The position numbers and the translations under genes are program-made. This document shows, one piece after another, positions 2,245 to 41,936 of a stretch of 64,000 bases of DNA. This stretch comes from an uncultured Nitrospira sp. Lineage in GTDB: Bacteria > Nitrospirota > Nitrospiria > Nitrospirales > Nitrospiraceae. Every line of letters begins with the position of its first letter. Within the stretch, counting starts at the first letter, position 1. Where the stretch lies: positions 1,944 to 65,943 of the forward strand of contig CAZBNV010000006.1 in NCBI GenBank assembly GCA_964493335.1, given 5' to 3'. Below the pieces are notes generated by a model that was given only the letters and a program-made list of their open reading frames with translations, searched no databases and was not told the origin of the DNA.

Positions 2245-2418
2245 CGGTCCTCCGCCCGAGAGAACGTATGCATGACCAACAGCGAAAGGCGCAGATGACA
2301 TGAGCTATTCGCCTTTCCCTCGTCGAGCCTGCGCGTTCTACCATCAGTCGTCCGCTCTTCGCTTCCCTGTTCCTATGAGTCGCCATGCGCACCAATGCGT
2401 CCTGTGAAGGAGTCGCCC

Positions 2419-4515
2419 ATGACCGACATCCAGGCAAAAATCCTCTTGGTGGATGACGACGCCAGAAGTCTGATGGCGATGGAAACGTTGCTGACTGGTC
2501 CAGGACGGGTCGTCATTACGGCGGATTCGGGGCAGGAGGCGCTGCGCCAGGTGCTTCGCCATGATTTTGCCGTCATTCTGCTCGATGTCCGCATGCCCAG
2601 AGTCGATGGATTCGAGGCTGCCGAGTTAATACGACAGCGCGAGCAGTCGCGCCATACGCCGATTATCTTTTTGTCCGCCGTGGATAAACTGGACGAAGAT
2701 GTATTCCGAGGGCTCGCGAGCGGGGCCGTGGATTACCTGTTCAAACCGGTCGTGCCCGAGGTGTTGCAGAGTAAGGTGTCCGTGTTCGTCGATCTTTATC
2801 GCATGCGCGAGCGCGTGAAGCTCCAAGCCGTTAGGCAGGGGGAAGAGCGGTTCAGCCTGCTGGTGGACAGCATCAGAGACTATTCGATTCTCCTGCTGAG
2901 TCCGCAAGGGACGGTCACCAGTTGGAATCCTGGCACCCGGCTCGTCGAAGGATACGAAGCGTCCGAAGTGATCGGCCGGAACCATGCCGTATTTTTTACC
3001 GCCGAGGATATCACGCGAGGCGATCCTGATCTGGCCTTGGAAATGGCTGCCGCCGCCGGTCAACATGAGGCCGAAGGATGGAGGGTGCGCAAGGACGGCT
3101 CGAAATTCTGGGCCAATGTCGTGATTACGGCCATGAAAGATGAGGCGGGAAAACTCAGCGGCTTTGCGCGTGTTGCGCGGGATCTGACGGAGCGGAAGGC
3201 CGCGGAGGAACAATTGCGAAAGATCGCAGTCGAACTGGAACAGCGCGTCAGCGAACGGACGCAAGAATTGCGCGATTCCCAGTTGCGACTCCGGGACCTG
3301 GCGACGGAATTGACCTTGACGGAACAGCGCGAACGGCGTCGGTTGGCCGGAGAGCTGCATGACTATCTGGCGCAGTTGCTCGTGCTGATCCGGATAAAAA
3401 TTCGGCAAACCTCAGCCCATGTCAAGGACGCAGTTCCCACATCCCTGCTGATGGAGGCCGATCGGGCCATTATCGACTCCCTCAACTATACGCGATCCTT
3501 GGTGGCCGAATTGGCCCCGCCGGCATTGCAGGAGTTCGGACTTCTCGAGGGGTTCGGATGGCTGGCGGAGCAAATGCAGAATCATGGCCTGACGGTCACG
3601 GTCAAGAGGAACATTCAACATGTCGTGCTGGATGACGACCAGGCGGTGCTCGTGTTCCAATCGACGCGTGAGTTGTTATTCAACGTGTTGAAACATGCGA
3701 GCACCAACCAGGCGGAAGTCACGATCGATAAGAATGGCGACGGCTATCTCGTGGTCACAGTGAAGGATGAAGGTTGTGGGTTCAATCTCGATGAGGTGAT
3801 CGCACAGAAGGACGAACGAAAACGATTCGGGCTGTTCAGTGTGCGGGAGCGAACCGAAGCCATGGGAGGCCGCCTCGAAGTGATCTCAACCCCTAAACAA
3901 GGTACCTCAGCGGCATTGATTGTGCCCTACTGGCCTGCTGTGCCTGGCCAGGCGGCGAGGTCGAATTCGCCGCCTACTCCGGCAGGACCGGTGATGACGA
4001 ATGGGGCAGAATCGATTTTGGCCCCTGATTCCCATGGCATCGGCGAAGGGGTGTTGTCAGCCGGCACTGATTCCGCTCAAGACAAGGTGCTGCGCATTCT
4101 TTTGGCCGATGACCACGTCATGGTGCGACAAGGCTTGCGCAGTATTCTGGATGGCTATCGCGACATCTCAGTGGTGGGCGAAGCCGCTGATGGAGAGGAA
4201 GCCGTGGAAATGGCCCGGTTGCTGGGCCCCGATGTCATCGTGATGGATGTGAACATGGCCAAATTGGACGGCATTGAAGCCACCCGCCAGGTCAAAGCAA
4301 GGTGGCCCGGCATCATCGTCGTCGGTCTCTCCGTGTCCACGCGGGGTCAAGTCGAATCTCTGCTCTTGGAGGCGGGAGCCAGCTGTTACGTGTCCAAGGA
4401 GGCAGCGGGTGACCAACTCTATGATGCGATCGTCATGGCAGTGAGGCAGGACTCGGGCGCCCGTCAGACGGTGGAGCCGGAGATTGTATTACCGACTGGC
4501 GAGCATCCGCCCTAG
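2419..4515 (+). CDS. REC-PAS-HisKA_3-HATPase_c-REC multidomain kinase; the C-terminal NarL-type receiver has no HTH
   Basis: AAGGAG at 2407-2412 precedes ATG 2419 (the ORF track starts at 2395). N-terminal REC: KILLVDDD...DYLFKP. A PAS domain follows. The HisKA_3 H-box is ELHDYLAQ, with an HATPase domain (KDEGCGF). The C-terminal REC is ILLADDHVMVRQGL...VMDVNMAKLDG. Confidence 0.9.
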   Translation: MTDIQAKILLVDDDARSLMAMETLLTGPGRVVITADSGQEALRQVLRHDFAVILLDVRMPRVDGFEAAELIRQREQSRHTPIIFLSAVDKLDEDVFRGLASGAVDYLFKPVVPEVLQSKVSVFVDLYRMRERVKLQAVRQGEERFSLLVDSIRDYSILLLSPQGTVTSWNPGTRLVEGYEASEVIGRNHAVFFTAEDITRGDPDLALEMAAAAGQHEAEGWRVRKDGSKFWANVVITAMKDEAGKLSGFARVARDLTERKAAEEQLRKIAVELEQRVSERTQELRDSQLRLRDLATELTLTEQRERRRLAGELHDYLAQLLVLIRIKIRQTSAHVKDAVPTSLLMEADRAIIDSLNYTRSLVAELAPPALQEFGLLEGFGWLAEQMQNHGLTVTVKRNIQHVVLDDDQAVLVFQSTRELLFNVLKHASTNQAEVTIDKNGDGYLVVTVKDEGCGFNLDEVIAQKDERKRFGLFSVRERTEAMGGRLEVISTPKQGTSAALIVPYWPAVPGQAARSNSPPTPAGPVMTNGAESILAPDSHGIGEGVLSAGTDSAQDKVLRILLADDHVMVRQGLRSILDGYRDISVVGEAADGEEAVEMARLLGPDVIVMDVNMAKLDGIEATRQVKARWPGIIVVGLSVSTRGQVESLLLEAGASCYVSKEAAGDQLYDAIVMAVRQDSGARQTVEPEIVLPTGEHPP

Positions 4516-4612
4516 TCCATAGCCTCTCTTGTCAATTCGCTCCTCACCCTAGCCCTATGTACGTTGCGTACTGAGTGGATCAGCCCTACTGTGACCGAGA
4601 TGGGACCTCGTC

Positions 4613-5002
4613 ATGACGATCAGAACAATCCCGGACGATGTCAGGAGGTTCATTCAGGCCAGCATCGATTCCGTTGCACAGTTGGAGGCGCTCCTTATTG
4701 TTCACGAGTATCCCAATACTGAATGGACGGTAGAGGCTCTGTCGGCGCGCCTGTATATCCCGCCCGAACAGACCTCGGCTGTCATGTCCCGTCTCTCCGA
4801 GAATCGATTGGTGATCAAACATCATGCCACTGCAGGGTTCCAGTATCAGCCAGAGTCGGAGGATCTGAGGAAAATGGTGGATCGGCTGGCCGAGGCTTAT
4901 CCCAAACACCTGGTGCCGATTACCAGGCTCATCCATTCAAAAGAGGGTCTTCGAATCAGAGAGTTTCCAGACGCGTTCGATTTCAGAAAGGAGCGATCCT
5001 AG
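4613..5002 (+). CDS. Hypothetical small cytoplasmic protein, possibly winged-helix-like
   Basis: 129-aa ORF. The segment SVAQLEALLIVHEYPNTEWTVEALSARLYIPPEQTSAVMSRLSENRLVIK resembles a MarR-like wHTH. Its stop overlaps the next start (TAGTG). Confidence 0.6.
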   Translation: MTIRTIPDDVRRFIQASIDSVAQLEALLIVHEYPNTEWTVEALSARLYIPPEQTSAVMSRLSENRLVIKHHATAGFQYQPESEDLRKMVDRLAEAYPKHLVPITRLIHSKEGLRIREFPDAFDFRKERS

Positions 5003-5259
5003 TGGTGCCCTTCATTTATGGTCTCTGCGGCATCCTGGCCTGTACCACGGCCTGGCTCCTTTTGCGAGGCTATGTCCGTAGCGGCTATCGTCTGTTGTTT
5101 TGGACGGGGCTGTATTTTTTGCTGTCCACACTCAACAACGGAGTTTTGGTGCTGGACAAGCTCGTATTTCCTCATCTCGACTTAAGCCTGTGGCGCCACG
5201 GGTTAGCGTTTATCGCCGTCGTGGTGCTCCTGATCGGTCTTATCCGGAGCGGAGAGTGA
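5002..5259 (+). CDS. Small 3-TM membrane protein (resembles DUF5985, recalled from memory)
   Basis: GTG 5002 overlaps the upstream stop, and AAGGAG lies at 4988-4993. Three hydrophobic helices are present. The longer 4723 start in the ORF track overlaps the upstream gene out of frame. Confidence 0.6.
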   Translation: MVPFIYGLCGILACTTAWLLLRGYVRSGYRLLFWTGLYFLLSTLNNGVLVLDKLVFPHLDLSLWRHGLAFIAVVVLLIGLIRSGE

Positions 5260-5262
5260 GCC

Positions 5263-5544
5263 ATGGATGTACTCGCCGCTAAAAGCTTCCTCCTGGGCGG
5301 CGTGGCCCTTGGTTGCTTGGCTGCGTCACTGTTTTTCTGGAAGTTCTGGCGGGTGACAGCCGATCGATTCTTTCTCTTCTTTGCACTGTCGTTCGGAGTT
5401 GAGACGTTGGGCCGGTCGGTATTAGGTCTTGTTGTTCTGTCGGAGGAAACCGAGCCACTGATTTATTCCTTTCGGTTGGTATCCTATGGGCTGATCATCT
5501 TGGCGATCGTCGACAAAAACCGAACGCAGCCCCAAAGAACCTAG
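5263..5544 (+). CDS. Small 3-TM membrane protein, paralog of 5002..5259
   Basis: The ATG lies 3 nt after the previous stop. Helix pattern and charged loops match the preceding gene (LFFWKFWRVTADRFFLFF versus LLLRGYVRSGYRLLFWTG). Confidence 0.6.
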   Translation: MDVLAAKSFLLGGVALGCLAASLFFWKFWRVTADRFFLFFALSFGVETLGRSVLGLVVLSEETEPLIYSFRLVSYGLIILAIVDKNRTQPQRT

Positions 5545-5546
5545 CT

Positions 5547-7649
5547 CTATCCCTTTAGAGACAGCTCGCCCCTATTCCTGGCGGCGTGGATGGCCTGGTA
5601 CAGGTCTTCAATAGCGGCATCCTTATTTAAAAAAGCGGTAGCACCAGCTTGCTTCATGGCCGTCTGTACATGTTCTTCATTTTGCACCGACAGCCCGATG
5701 ACCATGACAGCGGGGAACGTGTTCTTGATGTGACGCGTGGCTTCGATGCCATCCATCTTGGGCATATTCACATCCATCAGAATGACATCCGGCTTGGTTT
5801 GACTGGTCAATCGGATTGTCTCCAGACCGTTGCCGGCCTCTCCGACCACGTGGATGTCCACATAGTTTTGCAGGGCGCCGCGAAGCCCCTGGCGCACCAT
5901 CGCATGGTCATCAGCCAGGAGGAGGCGAATGTGCGGGCGGAGTGGAAGTAACCTGTTGGGAGGCGGGTTGTTCGACTCTGCCGTAACCGCCTGACCGGCG
6001 TCGTTTACGCTCATCGCAGGCTGCGGAGGGGTCGGGGCTGCTCCATCCGCCTTCGGCATGGTCGGCAGGGGCAGTATCAGGGCCGCCCTAGTTCCCTGGC
6101 CCGGAGCAGAGGTGAGTTCCAAGCGCCCACCTAGCGCCAGCATGCGCTCGCGTATGCTGAATAAGCCGAAACCGGGGACCGAGGTGGTGTGTGTGGCGGG
6201 GTTGAGAGCCTCAGGATCAAACCCGGCCCCTGCGTCTCGCACCTCAATGCGCAGTTCACCCTCGCACCGCTCCAACTGCACTGACGCCCTACCGACGCAG
6301 GCATGTTTGGCCGCATTCATCAAGAGTTCCCGGACGGACTGGAAGAGGAGCACGAGGCGATCGGCAGGCAGGCAGAGGTCATCGTTTCGAGACAGGTCTA
6401 CGGTCACGGTCAGGTCATACCGTTTCATCTGCTCGGCGAGCCAGGGCAGAGCGGCCAGTAGCCCAAACTCCTGCAAGACAGGGGGAGCCAGGTCGGCGAC
6501 CAGCGTTCTCGTGTACGTGAGGGACTGCGTCAGCACGTCCTCGACTTCCTGAATCAGCGCCCGCATGGCTGGGGTGAGGTTGTGAATGCGTGCGGTTTGG
6601 GATAGTTTTAATTTTCCCAATACCAGCATCTGTGCCAGATGGTCGTGCAACTCAGTCGCCACCCGCTGGCGCTCGCGTTGCTCGGCCAAATTCAACTCCG
6701 TGGCCAGGGCCCGCAGATGTTCTTGTGATCGTGTCAGCTCGGCGGTCTTTTCCTTGACGGCTCGCTCCAAATCCACGCTCCACCGCCGCAAGCGCTCTTC
6801 AGCCTCCTGACTGTCGGTCATATCGAAGCTCGCCCCAACATAGCCGATGAATTCCCCTCGCGCCGAGAGGCTCGGCATACCGACCGAGCGTATCCATCGA
6901 TATTCACCGTCGTGGCGAAGGAAGCGCACGGATGCTTCGAATCGCGCGCGCTGATCCACGGCCTTTAGATAAAGAGCGATGTATTCCTCGCGATCGTCCG
7001 GATGGATATAGGGGGCCCAATTGAATTGTTCCACCTCTCGCTGCTCGCGAAGGCCCAGAAACTCGAGATAGGCACGGTTGACGAAGTCGCATCCATCGAC
7101 ACCATTCGTCCAAATGAGCACCGGGGCACTGTCCGCCAGGGTTCGGAAGCGCATCTCGCTTTCCCTCAGACGGAGATCGGCTTCCTCGCGTTCCTGCAAC
7201 AGGCGAGCCTTTTCCTCGGCCACGGCGAGCATTTCATCTCGTTGTCGCGCGAGTTCGGCGCGTTGATGGTACAGTTCGAGGAAAATGGTGGCTTTGCTCT
7301 GCAGCACGTGCGGTTCAATCGGCTTATAGAGAAAATCCACCGCCCCGGCTGTATAGCCACGGAAACGGCGCAGGTTGTCCTGCGGGCCGGCGGTCAAAAA
7401 TATGATCGGGACATGCCGGCTGCGCTGCGAGCCACGCATCAACTCGGCAAGTTCGAAGCCATCCATGATCGGCATCTGCACGTCGATGAAGGCGAGCGCA
7501 ATATCGTGGTGCAGGAGGAGTTCCAGCGCGTCACGACCGGAATGGGCCTCCAGCATCTCCACATCGTCTCGTTGCAAAAGGCGTCTCAACGCCAACACAT
7601 TCGGTTCGTTGTCGTCGACCAGCAGCAATTTTGCGCGGCTATTCGGCAT
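5547..7649 (-). CDS. REC-PAS-HisKA_3-HATPase_c-REC multidomain kinase, paralog of 2419..4515
   Basis: Same domain order as 2419..4515: KLLLVDDN...DFLYKP, a PAS domain, the H-box ELHDHLAQ, RDAGAGF, and the C-terminal REC LLLADDHAMVRQGL. Its start lies 8 nt downstream of the cheB-like stop. Confidence 0.9.
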   Translation of the reverse strand: MPNSRAKLLLVDDNEPNVLALRRLLQRDDVEMLEAHSGRDALELLLHHDIALAFIDVQMPIMDGFELAELMRGSQRSRHVPIIFLTAGPQDNLRRFRGYTAGAVDFLYKPIEPHVLQSKATIFLELYHQRAELARQRDEMLAVAEEKARLLQEREEADLRLRESEMRFRTLADSAPVLIWTNGVDGCDFVNRAYLEFLGLREQREVEQFNWAPYIHPDDREEYIALYLKAVDQRARFEASVRFLRHDGEYRWIRSVGMPSLSARGEFIGYVGASFDMTDSQEAEERLRRWSVDLERAVKEKTAELTRSQEHLRALATELNLAEQRERQRVATELHDHLAQMLVLGKLKLSQTARIHNLTPAMRALIQEVEDVLTQSLTYTRTLVADLAPPVLQEFGLLAALPWLAEQMKRYDLTVTVDLSRNDDLCLPADRLVLLFQSVRELLMNAAKHACVGRASVQLERCEGELRIEVRDAGAGFDPEALNPATHTTSVPGFGLFSIRERMLALGGRLELTSAPGQGTRAALILPLPTMPKADGAAPTPPQPAMSVNDAGQAVTAESNNPPPNRLLPLRPHIRLLLADDHAMVRQGLRGALQNYVDIHVVGEAGNGLETIRLTSQTKPDVILMDVNMPKMDGIEATRHIKNTFPAVMVIGLSVQNEEHVQTAMKQAGATAFLNKDAAIEDLYQAIHAARNRGELSLKG

Positions 7650-7657
7650 TCGTTCCC

Positions 7658-8251
7658 TCAGACGGTTCGCTGATGCAAGAGTTGCGCGATATCAGTCAAA
7701 CTCATACAGCGTGCTTGGGCGCAAGCCGCGAGTGCCGCCTCGGGCATGACCCGTGCCTCCGCCGATTCAGGGGTTTGTACCAGCGCCATGCCACCGGCCT
7801 CGCAGACGGCGCGGACGCCTTGCGCGCCATCGTGGTTGGCGCCTGTGAGGATGACGGCGAGCAACCTGTCGCGATAGGTATCCGCGGCGGATTCGAATAA
7901 CACATCGATGGAAGGGCGCGAGTAGTTCACGGGCTCGTCGCTCGAGAGAGACAGGTGACGGTCGTGCTCCACCAGCACATGGTAGTCGGGGGGAGCAAAA
8001 TAAACCGTGCCGCGGAGAATTGGCTCCTTGTCCTCAGCTTCCTTCACCGTCAGCCGGCAGGTGGATTGAAAGAGCTGGGCAATGCTGCTGTGTTTCTCGG
8101 CCGGCACATGCACGGCGACGAAAATTGGGACAGGGTAGTCGGGCGGCAAGGACGGAAGAATGTGCGAGAGCGAAAAGATCGCACCGGCCGACCCCCCGAT
8201 CACAACCGCCTCGGTGTCGCGGAGGGTGATGTTCGAGGAGACGGAGATCAT
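7658..8251 (-). CDS. cheB: CheB-type protein-glutamate methylesterase, catalytic domain only (no receiver)
   Basis: VIGGSAGAI...SRPSIDVLFESAA...ILTGANHDGAQG matches the CheB methylesterase fold. ATGA start/stop overlap with cheR. Confidence 0.85.
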   Translation of the reverse strand: MISVSSNITLRDTEAVVIGGSAGAIFSLSHILPSLPPDYPVPIFVAVHVPAEKHSSIAQLFQSTCRLTVKEAEDKEPILRGTVYFAPPDYHVLVEHDRHLSLSSDEPVNYSRPSIDVLFESAADTYRDRLLAVILTGANHDGAQGVRAVCEAGGMALVQTPESAEARVMPEAALAACAQARCMSLTDIAQLLHQRTV

Positions 8252-9084
8252 GCGTCGCTCCTTTGATAAATTCGCTCGTCCGGAATAAATTCAGTGAACG
8301 CGTGGCGATGCGCATTGAACCGCAAGCTCTCCCTGGCGCCCGCGCCGAGAAAGCCTTTACGCACCAGGGCATCCTTGAAGAGGCCGACGGCGCGATCCTG
8401 CAAAGGACGATCGAAATAAATGAGCACGTTGCGGCAGGAAACGAGGTGCATTTCAGAAAAGACAGCATCGGAGACCAGGCTGTGGTCGGAGAAGACCGTG
8501 CGCCGGCAGAGCGTGTTGTCGAACCTCGCGGCGTTGTAGGCGGCGGTATAATATTCCGACAGTGAGCCGGTGCCGCCGGACAGTCGATGATTTTTGGTGA
8601 AGAGCGCGATGCGGTTCAAGTCATACACCCCGGCCTTGGCTTTCGCGAGCGCCTCGGCGTTGATGTCGGTGGCATAGAATAGCGTGCGGCTCTCGAGCCC
8701 TTCCTCACGAAACAAAATCGCCAGTGAATACAGTTCCTCGCCCGTACTGCAACCGGCGACCCAGACTTTCAGGGAGGGATAGGTTTTCAGATGCGGGACA
8801 ACCTTCTCGCGCAGCGCCAGAAAGTAGCTGGGGTCGCGAAACATGTCGCTCACCTGCACGGTCAGGTACCCAAGCAGCTGCGGGAAGACAGCCGGATCGT
8901 GGAGAACGTTGTCTTGTAGTGACGAGAAGGTTCGGCAGCCCATCCGCTCGCAGGCCTGATGGAGCCGGCGTTTGAGGGAAGCCCGCGAATAACCTCGGAA
9001 GTCATAGTGATACGCGGAATAAATCGCCTCGAGCAGTAATTGCAATTCAAGGTCGTCGGTCTTGTTGTCGGTGTCCTGTGTCAT
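8248..9084 (-). CDS. cheR: CheR-type protein-glutamate O-methyltransferase
   Basis: N-terminal CheR helical domain (LLLEAIYSAYHYDFRGYSRASLKRR) and SAM-binding motif (KVWVAGCSTGEELYSLAI...ATDIN). ATGA overlap with the upstream kinase. Confidence 0.9.
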   Translation of the reverse strand: MTQDTDNKTDDLELQLLLEAIYSAYHYDFRGYSRASLKRRLHQACERMGCRTFSSLQDNVLHDPAVFPQLLGYLTVQVSDMFRDPSYFLALREKVVPHLKTYPSLKVWVAGCSTGEELYSLAILFREEGLESRTLFYATDINAEALAKAKAGVYDLNRIALFTKNHRLSGGTGSLSEYYTAAYNAARFDNTLCRRTVFSDHSLVSDAVFSEMHLVSCRNVLIYFDRPLQDRAVGLFKDALVRKGFLGAGARESLRFNAHRHAFTEFIPDERIYQRSDA

Positions 9085-12000
9085 CGGGGCATCCAGACGC
9101 GCACCAGCGAGAGCAATTGGTCGACGTGCAGCGGCTTAGCCATGTAGTCGTTTGCGCCGGCGGCCAGGGCCTGCTCCTGATCATGTTTCATCGCCTTGGC
9201 CGTGAGGGCGATGATGGGCAGGGTGCGCCATTCGGCACGTGCCCGGATGGCGCGCATGGCGGCCAGGCCATCCATCTCCGGCATCATAATGTCCATGAGA
9301 ATGAGATCGATGGGACGTGTGCCGTCCTCTACCGGCTGCTCCAGGACCGCCAGACATTCAAGACCGTTGCGGGCAATGTCGATCGTGGCGCCATGCGGTT
9401 CCAAGACCGCGCTCAGCGCAAAAATATTCCGCACATCATCCTCCACGATCAGAATGCGCCGTCCTTCCAACACCGCACTGCGGCTGCGCGCTTTTTCGAG
9501 CATCGCTTGCTGTTCCAGGGGAAGCGTCGAGACGACCTGATGCAGGAACAGGGTGACTTCATCCAGCAGCCGTTCGGGGGACTTGGCGCCCTTGATGATG
9601 ATGGAATGCGAGTATTTGCGAAGACGCTGTTCTTCATCCGTCGAGAGATCGCGACCCGTGTACACGATGACCGGTGGAAACGCGTACTGCTCTTCCTGCC
9701 TCAAGGTCTCGAGTAGGGAAAACCCACTGGCGTCAGGCAGGGTCAGATCAAGAACCATGCAATCGAAGGTCTTGTCGGCGAGCTGTTTCAGACATTCGGC
9801 TGCGTTTTCGACGCCGATCGTTTCCACGTCCGGCGAGCCGAGCAAGCGTCGCAGACTCTCCCGTTGGGTGGGATCGTCTTCTACGATGAGCACTCGCCGA
9901 GGTTTTTGCGTGAGTCGGCTCTCGAACTGTTGAAATGCGTCGATGAGTTGCTCTCGCTTGACGGGTTTGAGGATGTATCCGACCGCGCCCAAAGAAAGTG
10001 CCGTCTGCATGTGGTCATGGGCTGAGACCACGTGTACCGGGATGTGCCTCGTGCGTGTGTCGTCTTTCAAACGGTCGATGACAGAGAGACCGGAATGGTC
10101 GGGCAACCCAAGATCCAACACCACGGCGCTCGGTACATAGCGGGTGGCGAGCGCAACCGCTTCGGCGGCGGTGTGCGCGAGGAGGACCTGAAAACTGAGT
10201 TCATGCGCAAGGTCGGCGAGAATACGTGCGAACGGCTCATCGTCCTCGACCATCAGGATCACCCGACGGCCGCCCGTCAATCGCTCCCGGTCGTCATTGA
10301 TTCTGGCCTCGGCGCCATTCGAAGGCAGAGGGTCAGACCAGGTTCCATTCGGTACGGCCGCGACGACGGAGGATGTGGACACCTGTGGGGCCCGGCCCTC
10401 GGTAAGGCGGGGAGGCGGGGCAGGCGCTGTATAGGTCTGGGGTAGGAGCAGGGTAAAGGTGCTGCCTTCGCCCACTCTGCTGCGCAGGTGAATCTCGCCT
10501 CCGAGCAGTCGCACGAACTCACGCGAAATCGACAGTCCCAGCCCTGTGCCTCCATACTTGCGATTGGTCGTGCCATCCGCCTGGCAGAAGGGTTCAAAAA
10601 TAATGTCTCGCTGCTCCTCCGGAATGCCGATGCCGGTGTCGCTCACGCTGAAGGCGATGCGGCCGTCAGAGGACCGAGACACGTCGAGCGAGACCTCGCC
10701 TTCCTCCGTAAATTTGATGGCATTGGAAAGCAGGTTTTTAAGGACCTGTTCGAGTCGTTGCCGGTCCGATTCTAAGTATTCCGGCGTTTCGGGTGACCGG
10801 CGCATGGTCAGCCGCAACGCTTTTTTCTCGGCCTGCGGTTGAAACAGCGAGCGTAGACTCTCGATGAGGCGCGCGATGGGCACTTGGCGCAGATCTAGAT
10901 CGAGGCGCCCGGCCTCGACCTTGGCAAGATCGAGCACGTCATCGATGAGGGCCAAGAGGTCGTTCCCGGCCGCTTCAATGGTGGTGAGGGATGTCACCTG
11001 ATCGGACGTGAGATTGCCGTCCGGATTATCGGCGAGCAGCTTCGCGAGGATGAGGGACGAGTTGAGGGGAGTCCGCATTTCGTGCGACATGTTGGCGAGA
11101 AACTCGGACTTATACCGGCTGGCCCGCTCCAATTGCCGAGCCTGGGTCTCCAGCGCACTGTTCGCGTCATGCAGGTCCTCCTTCTGAGTCTCGAGCAGCT
11201 GGGCCTGCCCTTCCAGCTGTGAGTTGATCTGTTCCAACTCGGCTTGCTGCTGTTCCATGTGGGCGTGGGATTCCTTCAACGCGCGGCTTTGCTCTTCAAG
11301 CTCTTCGTTGGCCACGCGCAGTTCTTCGCTTTGGACCTGAAGCTCCTCGGCTTGCCGCTGGGTTTCTTCCAGGAGGTCCTGGAGGCGCGTGCGGTATTGA
11401 GCCGACCGCACCGCGACGGCGATCGATTCCGATACGCGAGTGAGGAGGTCGATGTCGGCCTGTCCAACCCGGTGAAAGAATCCCAATTCCAGAACCGCTT
11501 TGACTCTGCCGTCTGCGGCGACCGGCGCAATCATGAGATGGCGTGGCGCACTCCTGCCAAGACCGGAGGCAATGGTGAAATAGGTATCCGGTACATCATG
11601 CAGAACACAGATACGTTGGTCCTTGACGGCTTGACCCAATAACCCATCCCCCGGCTCGAATCGCTCAGGCAGGGACGTCCCTGCAGCGACAGCGTGGGTT
11701 GCAAAGCGGCGAAAGCTTGCTCCGTCTTCCAGAAAGATTGCCGCCGCCTGGGCGCCGAGGCACCCCGCCATACAATGTAAAACGTTCTCACCCAGGCTGC
11801 GAAGGTCCTGTTCTCCGATCATTCGTTCGCTCAGCAACGTCTGAGCCGACTGTATCCATTCTTGTTCGCGCACCGCGAGTTTATTACGGATGAATTGGAA
11901 TCCGAAGACAGCGAGTGCCCAGGCCGTGGCAATTCCGATGCTTCGGTTGATCCCGGAAAAACCAGGATCCGCACCGATCGGGCTCAAGAAGTAACCGATG

Positions 12001-12203
12001 ACCGTCAGCACAGTAACTGCCGCCGCCACTCCCACCGGCGAGGAGGGATGCCAGGTGAGATATGACAAGACCACCGGCACGAGATACAGTGCCCACACCG
12101 CAATGCCCAACGGCGTCGAAAGGTCGGTCACAAACACGGCCGCCATCGAGAGCGCGACGGCGGTATACACAAACGGCGTGGGCGTGCGTTGAAACCTGGT
12201 CAT
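9081..12203 (-). CDS. Membrane-bound hybrid sensor kinase: about 4 TM helices, GAF, E/Q-rich coiled coil, HisKA, HATPase_c and three REC domains
   Basis: 1040-aa ORF with a hydrophobic N-terminus, a GAF-like region, the coiled coil QAEELQVQSEELRVANEELEEQ, the H-box SEFLANMSHEMRTPLN, GGTGLGLSIS, and three receivers. The start codon has no clear SD. Confidence 0.9.
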   Translation of the reverse strand: MTRFQRTPTPFVYTAVALSMAAVFVTDLSTPLGIAVWALYLVPVVLSYLTWHPSSPVGVAAAVTVLTVIGYFLSPIGADPGFSGINRSIGIATAWALAVFGFQFIRNKLAVREQEWIQSAQTLLSERMIGEQDLRSLGENVLHCMAGCLGAQAAAIFLEDGASFRRFATHAVAAGTSLPERFEPGDGLLGQAVKDQRICVLHDVPDTYFTIASGLGRSAPRHLMIAPVAADGRVKAVLELGFFHRVGQADIDLLTRVSESIAVAVRSAQYRTRLQDLLEETQRQAEELQVQSEELRVANEELEEQSRALKESHAHMEQQQAELEQINSQLEGQAQLLETQKEDLHDANSALETQARQLERASRYKSEFLANMSHEMRTPLNSSLILAKLLADNPDGNLTSDQVTSLTTIEAAGNDLLALIDDVLDLAKVEAGRLDLDLRQVPIARLIESLRSLFQPQAEKKALRLTMRRSPETPEYLESDRQRLEQVLKNLLSNAIKFTEEGEVSLDVSRSSDGRIAFSVSDTGIGIPEEQRDIIFEPFCQADGTTNRKYGGTGLGLSISREFVRLLGGEIHLRSRVGEGSTFTLLLPQTYTAPAPPPRLTEGRAPQVSTSSVVAAVPNGTWSDPLPSNGAEARINDDRERLTGGRRVILMVEDDEPFARILADLAHELSFQVLLAHTAAEAVALATRYVPSAVVLDLGLPDHSGLSVIDRLKDDTRTRHIPVHVVSAHDHMQTALSLGAVGYILKPVKREQLIDAFQQFESRLTQKPRRVLIVEDDPTQRESLRRLLGSPDVETIGVENAAECLKQLADKTFDCMVLDLTLPDASGFSLLETLRQEEQYAFPPVIVYTGRDLSTDEEQRLRKYSHSIIIKGAKSPERLLDEVTLFLHQVVSTLPLEQQAMLEKARSRSAVLEGRRILIVEDDVRNIFALSAVLEPHGATIDIARNGLECLAVLEQPVEDGTRPIDLILMDIMMPEMDGLAAMRAIRARAEWRTLPIIALTAKAMKHDQEQALAAGANDYMAKPLHVDQLLSLVRVWMPR

Positions 12204-12455
12204 CGTGTGCTCAGCATTCCCGGCAGACGGCTTGGATAGTTTGGTACAGGTCCTCGACCGACGGCCAGGAAAGTTATGGTCATGGCCGTGGCCGGTCTTA
12301 GAAAGCGCATCAATACATGGGAATCCCTCGTTGTGGAGGGAAGGACGGCTCCGGTCTCAGGACGCCATGCCCATGAGGCGGAACGAATACCTGTATACAT
12401 CCTGGATACAGGATGTATGGCGAACTTTTGTACTGCGATTCAGACATGCCCACCC

Positions 12456-12473
12456 ACTAGGGAGACCCCTAGT
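12456..12473 (-). promoter_or_regulatory. CTAG-palindrome box upstream of the kinase-cheR-cheB-kinase operon
   Basis: ACTAGG-GAGACC-CCTAGT is a perfect inverted repeat. On the minus strand it is followed after 23 nt by TACAAA (12427-12432). The leader to the 12203 start would be long, about 215 nt. Confidence 0.5.
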
Positions 12474-12510
12474 TTGCCTCCTGCGGCTGACGGAATGTAT
12501 TCGACTCAGG

Positions 12511-12885
12511 TTATTTAGGAATGGAGGGAGGCGGCAACTCAGGGGCGGCGCTGTCCATGACGCGCACGGCTCGACCTTGCTTATCCAGCTTGAGGGTAAT
12601 TCTTTGGCCCACCGAGAGATTGATGAAGAGCTCGGGCTTGACGATTTGAAATGCTACTTCTTTCCCCACATCAGTGGTCAGCGTGCCCTTCTTGTCTGCC
12701 AGATTCACCGTGCCCAGCGTTCCGGAGACGGTGTCATAAGCCTCAGCCGTTTCGGCATGTACTGGAGTGAGCCGGTGGATTTGAAACTCTGTCAGGGTGC
12801 CAAACAGCAAGCCTGCCGTTATTCCTCCCATGACCATTCCTCGAAGAACGGTGTGGTTTCGGCCCGATTGTGTGGGATCGTCCAT
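12511..12885 (-). CDS. Hypothetical membrane-anchored or exported protein
   Basis: AAGGAG lies 10 nt upstream of ATG 12885. One N-terminal hydrophobic helix is followed by a beta-rich soluble domain. I recognise no family. Confidence 0.6.
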   Translation of the reverse strand: MDDPTQSGRNHTVLRGMVMGGITAGLLFGTLTEFQIHRLTPVHAETAEAYDTVSGTLGTVNLADKKGTLTTDVGKEVAFQIVKPELFINLSVGQRITLKLDKQGRAVRVMDSAAPELPPPSIPK

Positions 12886-12929
12886 GGTGACTCTTCTCCT
12901 TTTCTAAACGCCTCTCCTGGCGGCGCGAT

Positions 12930-13121
12930 TTACTTTGGCGAACCTGGCATGAGAGGCGGTTGCGGAGTCGATGGCGGCACCGGCACAGGATCCGTCGGTT
13001 TCGGGGGAGCCGTAGGGCCAGGGCCTGGTTGCGGCATCGGCGCCGGCACCTCACCCAGCGATAAGCTTGCATTGCCGAATAAGATGCCGCAGATACCCAG
13101 GGTGGCGAATATCATCCTCAT
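12930..13121 (-). CDS. Small secreted proline-rich protein
   Basis: AAGGAG lies 8 nt upstream of ATG 13121. A signal-like N-terminus (MRMIFATLGICGILFGNASLSLG) is followed by a P-rich low-complexity tail. Confidence 0.45.
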   Translation of the reverse strand: MRMIFATLGICGILFGNASLSLGEVPAPMPQPGPGPTAPPKPTDPVPVPPSTPQPPLMPGSPK

Positions 13122-13181
13122 CAAAGTCTCTCCTTTTGCGCTACGGCCGGGACTCGTGGTGTCGGCTGCGCTCCAACGAGT

Positions 13182-13589
13182 TTACTGTGAACTTGCTCCG
13201 GATGCCGCAGGCACCGATTCCACCACCATTTTATGACAGATCTCAGCGCATCGCCGACATTCCTTAGCACAGTCTCCACAGAGCGGATGATGCGGGGCAT
13301 GTTGTTCACAGACGCCCGCGCAGACTTCACACAGTTCTGCGCACAACGCGCACATGCGCAGAGAAAAGGCGGAGGCTCGGCCCATCCATTGCGCCGCGAG
13401 CAAGCAGATGTCGGCGCAATCACGACAGAGCCTGATGCATCGCGCCGTCAAATCTTGCGCGGACGCATGCGACATGCCGATCATGTCGTCTCCGCACTTG
13501 TTGCAAACCCGGGCACAGGCCAGGCAGGCCTCGATGCAGGCTTCCATATGCTGCCCTACTGAGCGTTCGGCGAGATGGGAAGATTTCAT
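13182..13589 (-). CDS. Cysteine-rich four-helix-bundle protein (DUF326, copper-binding type)
   Basis: GGAGG lies 7 nt upstream of the ATG. Repeated CxxxC/CxxC helices (ACIEACLACARVCNKC, CIRLCRDCADIC, CALCAELCEVCAGVC, CGDCAKECRRCAEIC) are typical of DUF326. Confidence 0.8.
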   Translation of the reverse strand: MKSSHLAERSVGQHMEACIEACLACARVCNKCGDDMIGMSHASAQDLTARCIRLCRDCADICLLAAQWMGRASAFSLRMCALCAELCEVCAGVCEQHAPHHPLCGDCAKECRRCAEICHKMVVESVPAASGASSQ

Positions 13590-13828: not shown

Positions 13829-16015
13829 TTGGAATCTAGCGTGAGGGATTCACCGGCAGTGCTGGAACCGGGACGAAATTGTTGGCGTCGCGAAGCGTTT
13901 GAAAAGGCCGCCTTTCTCATCGATGGCGAGGCGTATTTTCACGCATTCAGGGCCGTGGCGCTCCAGGCGAAACAGTCCATCTTCATCATCGGCTGGGACG
14001 TGGATACCCAAATCGAGTTGGTGAAGGGGGAGGACCAGAGCTCCGGCTTTCCCAGGCGGCTGGGCGAATTTCTGGTCGCGCTGTTACGGCGTAAACGAAA
14101 GCTCCGAGTCTATGTCCTCAATTGGGATTTTGCGATGATTTACGCCTGGGAGCGTCAATGGATGCCGACGGCCGAGCCTGGATGGAGCCGCCATCGCCGG
14201 TTCTCATACGAGGTCGATGGCCAGCATCCCCTTGGAGCCTCGCACCACCAAAAGGTGGTGGTCATCGACGACACGATCGCCTTCGTCGGCGGGCTGGATC
14301 TGTCCAAGTCTCGATGGGACACGTCTGCCCATGTGTCTCAGGATCCCCGAAGAATCAATCCCGATGGGACACCGTATGCTCCCTTTCACGACGTGCAGAT
14401 GATGGTGTCGGGCGAGGCTGCGGCAGCCTTAGGAGATCTAGCCCGAGGTCGGTGGCTGAATGCGACTGGCCGGCGGCTCGGTCGTTCGGAGCGTCGCGCG
14501 GTGAAGGAGCTCTGGCCCCCTGCATTGCAGTCCGATATCGCTGACTGGGAGGTCGGAATTCTCCGGACGCAGCCCGCCTATGAGGCGCAACCGGAGGCTC
14601 GTGAGATCCAGCACGCCTATCTGGATGCCATTAAGAGCGCTCGCCAATCTATTTATATCGAGTCGCAATATTTCACCGCCCATGTCATCGGCCGGGCGCT
14701 TGCGGCTCGGCTGTCAGAACAGAACGGACCGGAAGTGGTGCTGGTGCTTCGTCACGACTGTGACGGGTGGCTAGAACGTCAGACGATGGATGCCCTCCGA
14801 GCCCGGGTGCTGAACGAGATGGAGATGGCCGATCACTATCACCGACTGCGTGTCTATGCCCCGATGGTTCCAGTCACCGAGGGCAGAGATTATGTTGTGG
14901 TGCATAGCAAACTGCTCATTGTGGATGAGGAATTCTTATGCCTTGGCTCGGCCAACGTGTCGAATCGCTCCATGGGATTCGATACCGAGTGCAATCTTGC
15001 GATCGCGTCCGACGGACGGCCGGAGGTCCGGACGGCGATCGCGGGCCTTCGCAATCGATTGCTCAGTGAACACTTGGGAGTCGCGGAGAGCCTCGTGAAG
15101 GAACACATCGCGTCTTGTGGTTCACTGATCGGGACGATTGAGGCGCTTCGCAATGGACGGCGAAGTCTAGAGGATGAGTGCTTCGGTACCAGTCGAGAAG
15201 GGGCCGCTCTGATTCCAGAGCATTTGCTGATTGACCCTGAACGGCCGATAGCCGCCGATCAGTTCCTGGACAGTGTTATGCATCGTCGGGAACAGGGTCG
15301 GATGGGACGTCGCTCGCTGGCAGTGGCCTCAGTATTGGCGGCCACATTGGTATTGGCTGCCGCCTGGCGCTGGACCCCATTGGGCGACCTGGTAACAGTC
15401 GAGGGTATTCTCGAATCGGTGCAGTCCCTGGGCCGAGGACCGTTGGGATGGCTCACGCTGTTGAGTAGTTATATCCTGGGAGGGTTGCTCGTCTTTCCTC
15501 TCACGCTGCTGATCGTCGTGACCCTCGTGGCATTCGGGCCCTTGGTGGGTCCCCCAACCGCTCTCGTGGGCTCATTGCTCAGCGCCATGGCCATTTTTGG
15601 CCTCGGACGCCTCTTGGGGAGATACCGGGTCCAACGGCTCGCGGGACGTCGTATGTCTCACCTCGCTCAACGCATTGCCGAACGTGGGATGTGGGCGGTT
15701 CTGCTGGTGAGACTTCTGCCGATCGCCCCCTTTTCGACGGTGAATCTGGTTGCCGGCGCCACGCCTATCACTCTGCGGGACTATGTCCTCGGCACCGCGC
15801 TCGGGATGGCACCCGGAATTGTGGTCATGGCGATGTTCATCGATCGTCTTGAAGCAGTGGTGCGAAGACCGACTCCTCTCGCCTTTGTGGTGCTGGGGTT
15901 TCTGATTGCCGGTGCGTGGGCCTGTGCCTGGTACCTGTCGCGGCGATTACAACAAGGGCGGCATGACGCGCTTCCCGCCGATGCACCCAGCTCGACTGTC
16001 ACCGCGTGCCCATGA
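13829..16015 (+). CDS. Phospholipase D-family protein (two HKD motifs) fused to a C-terminal DedA/VTT (SNARE-associated) membrane domain
   Basis: HKD motifs HHQKVVVIDD and VHSKLLIVDEEFLCLGSANVSNRS. The C-terminus has about 5 TM helices with a VTT-like core (LLVRLLPIAPFSTVNLVAGAT). The TTG 13829 start is uncertain; GTG 13841 is an alternative. Confidence 0.85.
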   Translation: MESSVRDSPAVLEPGRNCWRREAFEKAAFLIDGEAYFHAFRAVALQAKQSIFIIGWDVDTQIELVKGEDQSSGFPRRLGEFLVALLRRKRKLRVYVLNWDFAMIYAWERQWMPTAEPGWSRHRRFSYEVDGQHPLGASHHQKVVVIDDTIAFVGGLDLSKSRWDTSAHVSQDPRRINPDGTPYAPFHDVQMMVSGEAAAALGDLARGRWLNATGRRLGRSERRAVKELWPPALQSDIADWEVGILRTQPAYEAQPEAREIQHAYLDAIKSARQSIYIESQYFTAHVIGRALAARLSEQNGPEVVLVLRHDCDGWLERQTMDALRARVLNEMEMADHYHRLRVYAPMVPVTEGRDYVVVHSKLLIVDEEFLCLGSANVSNRSMGFDTECNLAIASDGRPEVRTAIAGLRNRLLSEHLGVAESLVKEHIASCGSLIGTIEALRNGRRSLEDECFGTSREGAALIPEHLLIDPERPIAADQFLDSVMHRREQGRMGRRSLAVASVLAATLVLAAAWRWTPLGDLVTVEGILESVQSLGRGPLGWLTLLSSYILGGLLVFPLTLLIVVTLVAFGPLVGPPTALVGSLLSAMAIFGLGRLLGRYRVQRLAGRRMSHLAQRIAERGMWAVLLVRLLPIAPFSTVNLVAGATPITLRDYVLGTALGMAPGIVVMAMFIDRLEAVVRRPTPLAFVVLGFLIAGAWACAWYLSRRLQQGRHDALPADAPSSTVTACP

Positions 16016-21416: not shown

Positions 21417-22277
21417 ATGCCCCGATCACTCTGGAAGGGCTCCATCAGCTTTGGCCTCGTCAATATTCCGGTCGTCCTCTATTCGGCGGAGAACCGGAAC
21501 AGCTTTGATCTCACCCTGTTGGACCGGCGTGACATGAACCCGGTCGGATTTAAGCGCTACAACAAGGAGACCGGCAAGGACGTGACGTGGGATCAGATCG
21601 TCAAGGGATACGAATATGAAAAGAGTCGGTATGTGGTTCTCACGGACGAGGATTTCCGCCGCGCGAATGTAGAAGCCACGCAAACCATCGACATCGTGAA
21701 TTTTGTCCGAGCCGAGGACATTGCACCCACCGCCTTTGAAACGCCCTATTACCTGGCGCCGGACAAACGAGGTGAAAAGGGTTATGCGCTCCTGCGCGAG
21801 ACCTTGAAAAAAACCAGCAAGGCCGCGATTGCCACGGTTGTCATTCGCACGAGACAGTATATTGCGGCGCTTATGCCTTGGAGCGACATGATGGTTCTGA
21901 ACACCCTGCGGTATGCGAATGAGCTTCGGTCCAGCAAAGACTTGGAGATTCCGTCCAAGAGCTTAAAGGCCGCCGGTGTGACGCCACGCGAGCTGGAGAT
22001 GGCCACGAAGCTGGTAGAGGAAATGTCGGATGCCTGGAAACCCGCTCAGTACAAGGATACCTATCATGACGATTTGATGCGGCTGATCAATAAGCGGATC
22101 AAAGCCGGAAAAACGGAAGTCATCACGCCTCCGTCAAAAGACCGGGAGGAAGAGAGGCCAGGCCGCGCCAAGGTCGTAGACCTCATGGCGCTCCTCAAGC
22201 GAAGTGTGCAGCAGCCCAGAAAAGCAAAACGGCATACGCCCAGGGGCGAGCGACATATCAGTCGCAAAACGGCATGA
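21417..22277 (+). CDS. ku: Ku protein (non-homologous end joining)
   Basis: The N-terminus RSLWKGSISFGLVNIPVVLYSA and the Ku core are followed by a basic C-terminal tail. Confidence 0.95.
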   Translation: MPRSLWKGSISFGLVNIPVVLYSAENRNSFDLTLLDRRDMNPVGFKRYNKETGKDVTWDQIVKGYEYEKSRYVVLTDEDFRRANVEATQTIDIVNFVRAEDIAPTAFETPYYLAPDKRGEKGYALLRETLKKTSKAAIATVVIRTRQYIAALMPWSDMMVLNTLRYANELRSSKDLEIPSKSLKAAGVTPRELEMATKLVEEMSDAWKPAQYKDTYHDDLMRLINKRIKAGKTEVITPPSKDREEERPGRAKVVDLMALLKRSVQQPRKAKRHTPRGERHISRKTA

Positions 22278-29901: not shown

Positions 29902-29916
29902 GACGCGACAGCCCGG

Positions 29917-34235: not shown

Positions 34236-34308
34236 CTGCTCCCTCCCATCCGTAGGCACTCATAGCCGACTGCCATTTCTTTCGACTTCATCACTCGCTC
34301 CCTCTTCC

Positions 34309-41733: not shown

Positions 41734-41936
41734 GACCTGTAATCCGGCCACGCCGCTGTCTGCGAGAAGGAGGCGTTATGGCGCAGTATCTGGATCCACT
41801 TATACGATCCGGAGCCATGTGGTCATGTGGACGACAGTCGGCGGTCAGGCCGCAGTCTGGACTGTGGTCGAGAATCTGGAGGTGGCTGGGAGTGAGCCGT
41901 CCCGCCGCACCGAGGCCCATCGTCTTTCGGAGCCCG

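Follow-up and report, generated by a model that had tools for sequence, protein, structure and literature searches.

The RsbK-RsbM system of Bacillus cereus, reportedly the subject of work by Chen et al. in 2012, is so far the only one in which methylation of a kinase has been demonstrated, and this in one direction, without demethylation. Here RsbM, a methyltransferase of the CheR type, methylates the signalling helix (S-helix) of the kinase RsbK (WP_002197482.1), as found in vitro and upon co-expression in E. coli (PMC4574943). RsbM is an orphan enzyme that is not accompanied by a CheB, and the methyl groups are believed not to be removed again (PMC4574943). A second set of described clusters comes from Pseudomonas, namely cfcABCDE of P. 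putida, the BmsA cluster of P. alkylphenolica, and genes 3082-3079 of P. brassicacearum (PMC4951495, PMC6849547, PMC8175716). The products of cfcB and cfcC in P. putida are a CheR and a CheB; their genes lie beside that of the hybrid kinase CfcA, and their participation in chemotaxis is reported to have been ruled out (PMC4951495). The Pseudomonas studies are genetic, dealing with biofilm, c-di-GMP and the response to salt, and do not report that CfcB/CfcC methylate CfcA (PMC4951495, PMC6849547, PMC8175716).

The system described below, from an uncultured Nitrospira sp., is probably a further instance of the known RsbK/RsbM mechanism, and has the known cfcABCDE/bmsA type of cluster. A sequence-only reading of the same DNA had put forward as new the idea that the coiled coil of a kinase is the substrate of CheR and CheB, yet the idea has already been published for RsbK/RsbM, and the same cluster has been named cfcABCDE or bmsA in Pseudomonas (PMC4951495, PMC8175716). 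The distinctive features of the Nitrospira module are the paired CheB and the lack of a CHASE3 sensor domain.

Operon layout and comparison with described systems

The window, which is the whole 64-kb stretch of DNA that was analysed, contains the following features.

9081..12203, minus strand: HK1, a hybrid sensor kinase of 1040 aa (Pfam: GAF 132-265, HisKA 365-432, HATPase 480-589, three REC)
About residues 1-110 of HK1: hydrophobic membrane N-terminus, upstream of GAF
11118..11384, minus strand: HK1 signalling helix (S-helix/coiled coil), residues about 274-362 (heptad register, conservation, AF2)
11289..11351, minus strand: predicted methylation region of HK1, AEELQVQ SEELRVA NEELEEQ (register and orthologue alignment)
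11082..11084, minus strand: codon of HK1 His374, the phospho-acceptor, in the H-box FLANMSHEMRTP (Pfam and register)
8248..9084, minus strand: CheR, 278 aa, of the SAM-dependent glutamate methyltransferase type, CheR_N + CheR (Pfam, 115 bits)
7658..8251, minus strand: CheB, the methylesterase/deamidase catalytic domain alone, 197 aa (Pfam, 187 bits, profile 1-174 of 174)
5547..7649, minus strand: HK2, 700 aa, REC-PAS-HisKA_3-HATPase-REC (Pfam), last gene of the operon
1..2244, plus strand: HK3, a 5'-truncated hybrid kinase paralogue with S-helix, HisKA, HATPase and three REC, without a cheRB link
2395..4515, plus strand: HK4, REC-PAS-HisKA_3-HATPase-REC, 41% identical to HK2, directly after HK3

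Transcription on the minus strand runs from HK1 through CheR and CheB to HK2. As read directly from the sequence, the HK1 stop and the cheR start overlap in an ATGA at 9081-9084, the cheR stop and the cheB start do so at 8248-8251, and cheB is separated from HK2 by a gap of 8 nt, GGGAACGA. HK1-CheR-CheB-HK2 is a single operon, which bears out the proposal made from the letters alone, and the gene order given there (GAF hybrid kinase, cheR, REC-less cheB, REC-PAS-HisKA_3-REC kinase) agrees with the ORFs and the Pfam domains. Scans for promoters and terminators found no more of them than would be expected from shuffled sequence. HK3 and HK4 are adjacent to each other, with neither cheR nor cheB between them. 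In a search for transcripts of the operon, the sequence turned up only in DNA metagenome runs (rock, soil and sludge) and in one run of unknown kind, in which the contigs indicate presence only.

When compared by architecture and gene layout, HK1 resembles RsbK in having the GAF, S-helix, HisKA, HATPase and REC arrangement, in the CheR-type gene located directly downstream in the same operon (here by way of the ATGA overlap), and in the position of the methyl-acceptor helix between GAF and the H-box, demonstrated in RsbK and proposed in HK1. The two systems are further linked by the Bacillaceae relatives of HK1, which share the EEL phase and a CheR-only layout. They differ in that the Nitrospira operon has a dedicated REC-less CheB, and in that RsbK possesses CHASE3, HAMP and one REC, whereas HK1 has a small membrane N-terminus, neither of these two domains, and three RECs. 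The output is RsbY/sigma-B in the Bacillus system and a REC-led kinase in Nitrospira.

The Pseudomonas clusters have the same order of hybrid kinase, CheR, CheB and hybrid/REC kinase on one strand (PMC8175716, PMC4951495), and here too the CheR/CheB pair lies outside any chemotaxis cluster; CfcA, CfcB and CfcC were matched to the Nitrospira proteins by gene order and domain layout. Proteobacterial HK1 orthologues are CHASE3/GAF hybrid kinases, as are CfcA and BmsA, and the phospho-His496 of CfcA agrees with the HisKA position in the Agrobacterium orthologue. In contrast, Nitrospira HK1 carries GAF only, without CHASE3, the Nitrospira operon has no GGDEF/EAL response regulator (CfcR) nearby, and the host is a nitrite oxidiser rather than a pseudomonad.

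Both adaptation enzymes look active, as judged from conserved catalytic residues and SAM motifs. CheR contains the motifs VWxAGCSTGEELYS, ATDIN and CRNVLIYFD, plus a basic KRRL in its N-domain; it shares about 25% identity with E. coli CheR and 65-96% with its 80 closest genomic relatives, those in other phyla included. CheB can be aligned to residues 153-349 of E. coli CheB only, and has no receiver domain. Its Ser21, His48 and Asp141 are invariant and correspond in the alignment to the triad Ser164/His190/Asp286 of E. coli CheB.

Glutamate doublets in the signalling helix

From the sequence comparisons presented here, we consider it probable (roughly 0.7) that CheR and CheB reversibly methylate the signalling helix of HK1 and do not serve chemoreceptors. 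The helix consists of about 14 unbroken heptads with a leucine at every seventh position, in phase with His374. Residues 284-309, QAEELQVQSEELRVANEELEEQSRAL (nt 11277..11354), fall within the segment that the sequence-only reading had marked as E/Q-rich, and the glutamate doublets of HK1 are E286/E287, E293/E294, E300/E301 and E303/E304. The second glutamate of every EEL is located 7n+3 residues before His374. In RsbK the methylated positions, which we take to be E439 and E446 with His505, would fit the same 7n+3 spacing.

The S-helix is near-invariant over 74 orthologues, and each of the eight doublet positions is occupied by glutamate in 69-73 of 73 orthologues. Length variants of the helix in the HK1 family come in whole-heptad steps only, with 75, 82, 68 or 61 residues between NEEL and the histidine. 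AF2, run with a single sequence, predicts one helix for HK1 residues 248-392, with pLDDT >90 for about 274-350; on residues 125-600 the mean pLDDT is 50, and the prediction is confident for the long helix only. A tether for CheR through a C-terminal pentapeptide of HK1 was also considered and dropped, as the terminal RVWMPR merely ends the last receiver.

With regard to the likeness to MCP methylation sites that had been suggested earlier, heptad-spaced E-E doublets are present, but their context is E-E-L-x-x-x-[S/N], without Gln, as opposed to the MCP consensus E-E-x-x-A-[S/T], and the E/Q alternation that is the hallmark of MCP sites is absent from the candidate sites in the main class of HK1 orthologues, in which E-to-Q changes are rare. 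Such alternation is seen only between sub-families that have a duplicated 28-residue unit, and in the HK3 family.

An internal comparison is provided by HK3. The E/Q-rich peptides that had been quoted before HisKA in both kinases are located as stated, that of the 5'-partial kinase corresponding to frame-1 residues 16-37 (nt 46-111); the segment is not diagnostic, however, as HK3 represents a separate, cheRB-less family. In 72 of the 76 evaluable loci of this family the kinase is directly followed by the REC-kinase, without cheR or cheB. The HK3-family helix is equally conserved and has the same xEL/NEEL skeleton, with NEEL alternating with NEQL, and conservation of the helix alone was therefore dropped as proof of an enzyme substrate. 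Where HK1 has its first two E-E doublets, the HK3 family carries T/A/G-E and K/R-E, so that the first glutamate of these doublets never occurs in the cheRB-less family. The lack of cheRB in the HK3/HK4 pair and of the first two doublets in the family speaks against HK3 as a substrate. The earlier proposal of a methylated kinase coiled coil is thus abandoned for the kinase at 1-2244, which had been named as a second candidate, and retained for HK1, where synteny, the cheRB-specific doublets, intact catalytic residues and the RsbM precedent argue strongly for it.

An equally conserved xEL/NEEL helix in a paralogous family without cheRB is also what would be expected if the Glu-rich helix were kept for structural signalling only, with CheR and CheB acting as a scaffold or as regulators by binding, or being unconnected to the helix. 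This reading is very unlikely in view of the invariant catalytic residues in both enzymes, the confinement of the first glutamates of the first two EEL doublets to the cheRB-linked family, and the catalytic action of the homologous RsbM on RsbK (PMC4574943). As regards methylation of HK1 itself, four distant HK3-like loci have a CheR-like gene and lack the Glu doublets, and the doublets may thus not be required.

Gene neighbourhoods across phyla

The four-gene order was found in about 80 genomes of at least six phyla, with loci in Nitrospirota, Planctomycetota, Verrucomicrobiota, Alpha-, Beta- and Gammaproteobacteria, Myxococcota and Armatimonadota. Among the 80 closest relatives of CheR, an HK1-like kinase, CheR, a REC-less CheB and a REC-led kinase are encountered in all sufficiently flanked loci except three (L019, L060 and L061), where no CheB was seen. 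The HK1 orthologues, likewise from at least six phyla, show 52-97% identity. A motif-first genome scan with the back-translated peptide EELRVxNEELEEQ yielded 119 loci, and this survey of the co-occurrence of the repeat with cheRB, which the sequence-only reading had called for, placed cheR directly after the kinase in 79 of 81 evaluable cases (98%, a figure that in part represents shared ancestry since the scan mostly recovers orthologues) and found cheB as well for 63 of 65 evaluable kinases.

The sensory portion is variable among these kinases, in that the Agrobacterium orthologue of HK1 has CHASE3 and the Bacillus orthologue has 4HB_MCP and HAMP. In Bacillaceae relatives of HK1 the EEL phase is unchanged, and the gene that comes next is an orphan CheR; when the Bacillus relative served as query in a protein search, all matches belonged to the 1080-aa Bacillaceae family. 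An identical helix motif occurs in a kinase encoded by a Pseudomonas sp. MAG (L158).

No MCP, CheA or CheW was detected in the 64-kb window by tblastn (queries: E. coli Tar, Tap, CheW, CheA and CheZ), by a fuzzy six-frame search for the hairpin motif of MCPs, or by a Pfam run on 42 of the 47 largest ORFs, in keeping with the earlier statement that the window lacks an MCP; the sole tblastn match to CheA is a weak HATPase match inside HK1. Tar, Tap, CheW and CheZ gave zero matches within 10 kb of the 80 closest CheR loci, and neither MCP nor CheW was found within 10 kb in about 200 related loci. With regard to canonical chemotaxis adaptation, the operon presents intact CheR and CheB active sites, and lacks the CheB receiver and MCP, CheA and CheW neighbours.

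These neighbourhoods bear on the alternative that CheR and CheB are spare adaptation enzymes for chemoreceptors encoded elsewhere, in which case their position between two kinases would reflect co-regulation only. The catalytic residues of both enzymes are canonical, the HK1 helix is not an exact match to the MCP consensus, and the window represents 64 kb of a genome, with Nitrospira genomes possibly carrying MCPs at other locations. Against this alternative, which we regard as unlikely, stand the absence of MCP and CheW around the related loci, the maintenance of the kinase-cheR-cheB order across phyla, and a CheR clade that is 65-80% identical between phyla as compared with about 25% to E. 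coli CheR. Moreover, this CheB is devoid of the receiver that couples CheB to CheA, and the orthologous pair of P. putida reportedly plays no part in chemotaxis (PMC4951495).

The substrate could also be another member of the module, HK2 or a receiver domain, rather than the HK1 helix. The N-terminal REC of HK2 is strongly conserved in all loci, which would favour such a role, and it is the only part of the protein that is kept across phyla. Beyond this receiver, however, the fourth gene differs by lineage (HisKA, HWE_HK or PAS-HisKA_3), and no conserved heptad Glu doublets were found in the HK2 linker. To our knowledge, there is also no CheR that methylates receiver domains, and we hold a substrate other than HK1 to be highly improbable. 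In favour of such a substrate, the REC of B. cereus RsbK does interact with the methylated helix (PMC4574943), and receivers accordingly belong to the mechanism.

A proposed methylation loop on HK1

In the scheme that is proposed for HK1, CheR together with SAM would esterify E287, E294 and E301 (the second glutamates of the doublets) and possibly E303/E304, and CheB would hydrolyse the methyl esters on the helix. Loss of exposed charge would alter how the dimeric coiled coil, which is in strict phase with His374, packs or rotates, and this change would reset the balance between the kinase and phosphatase activities of HK1. As CheB has no receiver domain, any feedback must come by way of the conformation of the substrate helix and would not involve CheB phosphorylation. 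The signal would then pass from HK1, by way of the receivers that it carries, to the conserved N-terminal REC of HK2, which is the likely phospho-acceptor of HK1. What we infer here comprises methyl transfer itself, its precise positions, the direction of its effect, and phosphotransfer from HK1 to HK2.

On balance we lean slightly towards a wider interpretation, in which a complete reversible methylation loop acts directly on a receptor-free hybrid kinase, with feedback through helix conformation and with the sites being the second glutamate of EEL, 7n+3 before the phospho-histidine. The module would then be among the most strongly conserved and widely transferred signalling cassettes of soil and freshwater bacteria, with nitrite-oxidising Nitrospira among its hosts, and the Firmicute RsbK/RsbM system would be its reduced, one-way version.

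With the MCP system (Tar, Tsr) this loop would have in common the identical two enzyme families, a dimeric coiled-coil substrate with heptad-spaced, exposed Glu doublets, and an attached histidine kinase that is tuned by charge neutralisation, the last of which is a prediction for HK1. In HK1, unlike the MCP system, the kinase is covalently joined to the substrate without CheA, CheW or an MCP, and the Nitrospira CheB is not equipped with a phosphorylatable receiver.

If true, adaptation by reversible glutamate methylation would extend beyond chemotaxis and would be a general means of setting the gain in a large family of two-component kinases that spans phyla, although specialists would not be surprised, as both the cluster and the principle have been published. 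Nitrospira, a key nitrifier, is difficult to work with genetically, and the scheme offers a concrete hypothesis on how a stress or redox kinase may be tuned in it; the residue-level predictions of the scheme lend themselves to tests in tractable systems with orthologues, such as cfcABC of P. putida or Agrobacterium.

The repeat is encountered in one further setting. Protein fragments to which JGI gives the name CheB/CheR fusion protein (in KEGG, [quoted passage not shown]) carry heptads of the form [ST]xNEEL directly before PAS_10, which substantiates the likeness to CheB-CheR-fused kinases that had been noticed earlier. In the fusion type the enzymes and the repeat are part of one polypeptide, whereas in Nitrospira they are separate proteins and the repeat is placed before HisKA. 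Its presence in both HK1 and the fusions suggests that [ST]xNEEL is an element by which CheR/CheB enzymes outside chemotaxis commonly recognise their substrates.

Gene order and enzymes of the module

Four adjacent minus-strand genes, transcribed in the order HK1 (a GAF hybrid kinase), CheR, CheB and HK2 (a REC-led kinase), make up the module considered here.

Genes of the module in the window
9081..12203, minus strand: HK1, 1040 aa; hydrophobic N-terminus, GAF (132-265), long helical linker, HisKA (365-432), HATPase (480-589), three receivers
8248..9084, minus strand: CheR, 278 aa; CheR_N and catalytic domain
7658..8251, minus strand: CheB, 197 aa; full methylesterase profile (1-174/174), no other match
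5547..7649, minus strand: HK2, 700 aa; REC-PAS-HisKA_3-HATPase-REC

ATGA overlaps join the HK1 stop to the cheR start and the cheR stop to the cheB start, and cheB is separated from HK2 by 8 bases (GGGAACGA). The single-operon layout proposed in an earlier sequence-only reading is thus confirmed, its coordinates and peptides are correct, and its CheB without a receiver agrees with the lone methylesterase profile. Promoter and terminator scans gave background level only, and no RNA sequencing runs containing the sequence were found. Both enzymes retain their recognizable catalytic features: Ser21, His48 and Asp141 of CheB, invariant in orthologues, correspond in alignment to the triad of the E. 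coli enzyme (Ser164, His190 and Asp286). In CheR the motifs for SAM binding are preserved, as is a basic KRRL stretch of the N-terminal domain; compared with its E. coli counterpart, this CheR also carries a conserved insertion of 8 residues (SGGxxSLSxYY) in the region of the beta-subdomain.

The reading that we favour, with a probability of about 0.7, is that CheR and CheB act on Glu doublets of the HK1 signalling helix (S-helix), which lies before the phospho-acceptor His374. CheR would methylate the exposed second Glu of each doublet and CheB would take the methyl groups off; the change in charge would alter coiled-coil packing in phase with His374 and reset kinase output, and the signal would then pass to the HK2 receiver. 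Because this CheB has no receiver, any adaptation feedback would probably operate through conformation-dependent access to the helix.

A substrate role for methyl-accepting chemotaxis proteins (MCPs) encoded elsewhere is considered improbable. The absence of an MCP from the 64-kb window, noted from the sequence alone, was upheld: no MCP, CheW or CheA was found there by tblastn with E. coli protein queries, no MCP hairpin by fuzzy search in six frames, and no corresponding domain by Pfam among 42 of the 47 largest ORFs. Likewise, no homologue of Tar, Tap, CheW or CheZ lies within 10 kb of any of the best 80 CheR-relative loci.

Distribution of the module

Proteins from Nitrospira MAGs match the window CheR at 94-96% identity, and the window DNA is present in rock, soil and sludge metagenomes. 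The best 80 genomic relatives of CheR share 65-96% identity with it, in contrast to about 25% for E. coli CheR, and come from Nitrospirota, Planctomycetota, Verrucomicrobiota, Alpha-, Beta- and Gammaproteobacteria, Myxococcota and Armatimonadota. Among these, all loci with enough flank but three (L019, L060 and L061, which are CheR-only) have an HK1-like kinase, CheR, a receiver-less CheB of about 190 aa and a REC-led protein in that order, the kinases being 52-97% identical to HK1 across most of its length. The fourth protein is a kinase in all cases, with a well conserved N-terminal receiver and a varying type: REC-HisKA-HATPase(-REC), REC-HWE_HK or REC-PAS-HisKA_3-HATPase-REC. That another protein of the module, rather than HK1, is the substrate is given little weight.

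Searching a genome collection with the back-translated peptide EELRVxNEELEEQ gave at least 119 loci. Among the matches listed, 81 were evaluable (kinase ORF complete and followed by 400 nt or more of sequence); cheR directly follows the kinase in 79 of these, and cheB is also present in 63 of the 65 with enough sequence, the exceptions being two CheR-only loci and two with neither gene. As so strict a motif mostly recovers orthologues, this co-occurrence shows a very stable module and not independent events.

Several other Nitrospira genomes (L005-L011, about 1650..6903) encode, immediately upstream of the HK1 orthologue and in the same orientation, a kinase of about 1700 aa with multiple domains; the L005 copy reads HisKA-HATPase-REC-PAS-GAF-PAS-HisKA_3-HATPase by Pfam. 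The matching window position holds a 343-aa ORF (12205..13236) on the opposite strand, with no Pfam match.

Glutamate doublets and the paralogous pair

From about residue 274 of HK1 to His374 the heptads are unbroken, with Leu at every seventh position. A single-sequence AlphaFold2 model, poor overall, gives one continuous helix over 248-392, in which residues about 274-350 reach a pLDDT above 90. The first half of the helix, ETQRQAEELQVQSEELRVANEELEEQSRALKES...LEQQQAELEQTNSQLEEQ, is near-invariant in 74 orthologues from all module phyla. Glu doublets at 286/287, 293/294 and 300/301 are spaced by exactly seven residues, a further doublet lies at 303/304, and the second Glu of every EEL is 7n+3 residues ahead of His374. 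In the 182 family members compared, NEEL stands 75, 82, 68 or 61 residues from the His, and length therefore varies in whole heptads only. Some lineages carry a complete second copy of the 28-residue helix unit, which in the window HK1 has decayed to AELEQINSQLEGQ. Within the main class of the HK1 family, no E/Q alternation was seen at the candidate sites.

A second kinase pair in the window, in which one gene immediately follows the other with neither cheR nor cheB between them, served as the comparison.

The comparison pair
1..2244, plus strand: HK3, 5'-truncated kinase
2395..4515, plus strand: HK4, REC-led kinase, 41% identical to HK2 and of the same architecture

Of 80 HK3 relatives fetched, 76 gave evaluable loci; a REC-kinase directly follows the HK3-family kinase in 72 of them, CheB occurs in none, and a divergent CheR-like gene occurs in four distant loci only. 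Helix conservation equals that of HK1 in this cheRB-less family, so that conservation alone says nothing of enzyme-substrate status, and it was rejected as evidence for a substrate. The two families differ in their residues.

Residues at helix positions in the HK1 and HK3 families
286: HK1 family, E in 69/73; HK3 family, T, A, G, V or I, never E
293: HK1 family, E in 73/73; HK3 family, mostly K or R, with E outside the five commonest residues
300/301: HK1 family, E-E in 73/73; HK3 family (n=76), E in 66 at 300, Q in 52 and E in 24 at 301
303/304: HK1 family, E in 71/73 and 72/73; HK3 family, A in 42, E in 26 and G in 8 at 303, mostly Q at 304

By these alignments an xEL skeleton is common to both families, and only the cheRB-linked one has the first two E-E doublets. 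That specificity favours the substrate idea for HK1 and disfavours it for the 5'-partial kinase; the earlier proposal, which had covered the coiled coils of both, thus gains support for the former and loses ground for the latter, whose family lacks these doublets and CheB alike. A Glu-rich helix of purely structural function, in favour of which the equal conservation in the two families speaks, appears unlikely.

Pairs of the HK3-HK4 type (L201-L280) are widespread, a hybrid kinase of 1200-2400 aa being immediately followed by a REC-PAS-HisKA_3-HATPase-REC protein, and the pre-HisKA helix of the HK3 family is conserved in Acidobacteriota, Alphaproteobacteria, Nitrospirota and others. At the equivalent of HK1 E301 this family has NEEL or NEQL by lineage, an E/Q alternation without adjacent cheRB. 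In the four distant loci (L270, L277, L279 and L280) the CheR-like gene (33-40% identity) begins 12-63 nt after the HK3-like kinase, CheB is absent and the kinase helices have no Glu doublets; the L280 copy, the sole one checked, has CheR_N and CheR by Pfam. Such loci may represent a third way in which CheR is linked to a kinase.

Related systems and neighbouring genes

In B. cereus, the S-helix of RsbK (CHASE3, HAMP, GAF, S-helix, HK, REC) receives methyl groups from the adjacently encoded CheR-type RsbM, as established with 14C-SAM and by co-expression; no esterase partners RsbM, and the same paper speaks of "127 RsbK-like kinases in 10 phyla" (PMC4574943). Bacillaceae relatives of HK1 (4HB_MCP, HAMP, GAF, HK, REC) carry 2-6 EEL triplets, all in 7n+3 phase, and therefore link the Firmicute CheR-only layout to the CheR-plus-CheB layout. 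One such locus (L281, Fredinandcohnia sp., 3895..10115) encodes, in this order, a REC-GGDEF-EAL regulator, an HK1-like kinase and CheR only, echoing both the c-di-GMP-related pair CfcA/CfcR of P. putida and the arrangement of RsbK with RsbM.

The four-gene order also occurs in Pseudomonas, in cfcABCDE, the bmsA cluster and P. brassicacearum 3082-3079, where the hybrid kinase CfcA has CHASE3 and GAF domains, CheR and CheB are the products of cfcB and cfcC, and a chemotaxis role for these two is reported as ruled out (PMC4951495, PMC6849547, PMC8175716). No report of CfcA methylation by CfcB/CfcC was found in the Pseudomonas literature examined. The Agrobacterium HK1 orthologue (CHASE3-GAF-HisKA-HATPase-RECx3) fits CfcA, whereas the window HK1 lacks CHASE3. 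The window module is thus a somewhat reduced form of a known system, in a lineage for which it had not been discussed; predicting the sites at the level of single residues, and contrasting the module with a cheRB-less paralogous family, may be new. The resemblance to CheB-CheR fusions that had been remarked on was also recovered: with a consensus peptide as query, 24 of 66 matches were named CheB/CheR fusion protein (JGI), several with PAS_10, and the fusion proteins have the same type of heptad repeat (NEELQST NEELETS KEELQSV NEEL).

Elsewhere in the window, two tandem DUF5985 genes (4723..5259 and 5263..5544, plus strand) directly follow HK4 and are convergent with HK2, whose end they face. 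Ku, followed immediately by a bacterial type IB topoisomerase (21417..23413, plus strand), and, 15 kb away, a full-length LigD with phosphoesterase, ligase and primase-polymerase (38730..41348, plus strand) together make up a set for non-homologous end joining in which the pairing of Ku with TopIB is unusual. Two tandem paralogues (28552..31143, minus strand) give weak matches (66 and 39 bits) to the N-terminal half of the cytochrome bd oxidase subunit I profile, and are reminiscent of the putative terminal oxidases of bd-like type reported from Nitrospira. A molybdopterin oxidoreductase, a 4Fe-4S protein and an NrfD-type membrane subunit (32185..36498, minus strand) form a polysulfide/tetrathionate-reductase-like complex. 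A 269-aa protein (41504..42313, minus strand) begins with 59 residues that match the domain of the Anabaena sensory rhodopsin transducer (ASRT), with no rhodopsin gene seen nearby, and at 13829..16015 (plus strand) phospholipase D-like domains are fused to a C-terminal VTT (DedA-type) membrane domain.
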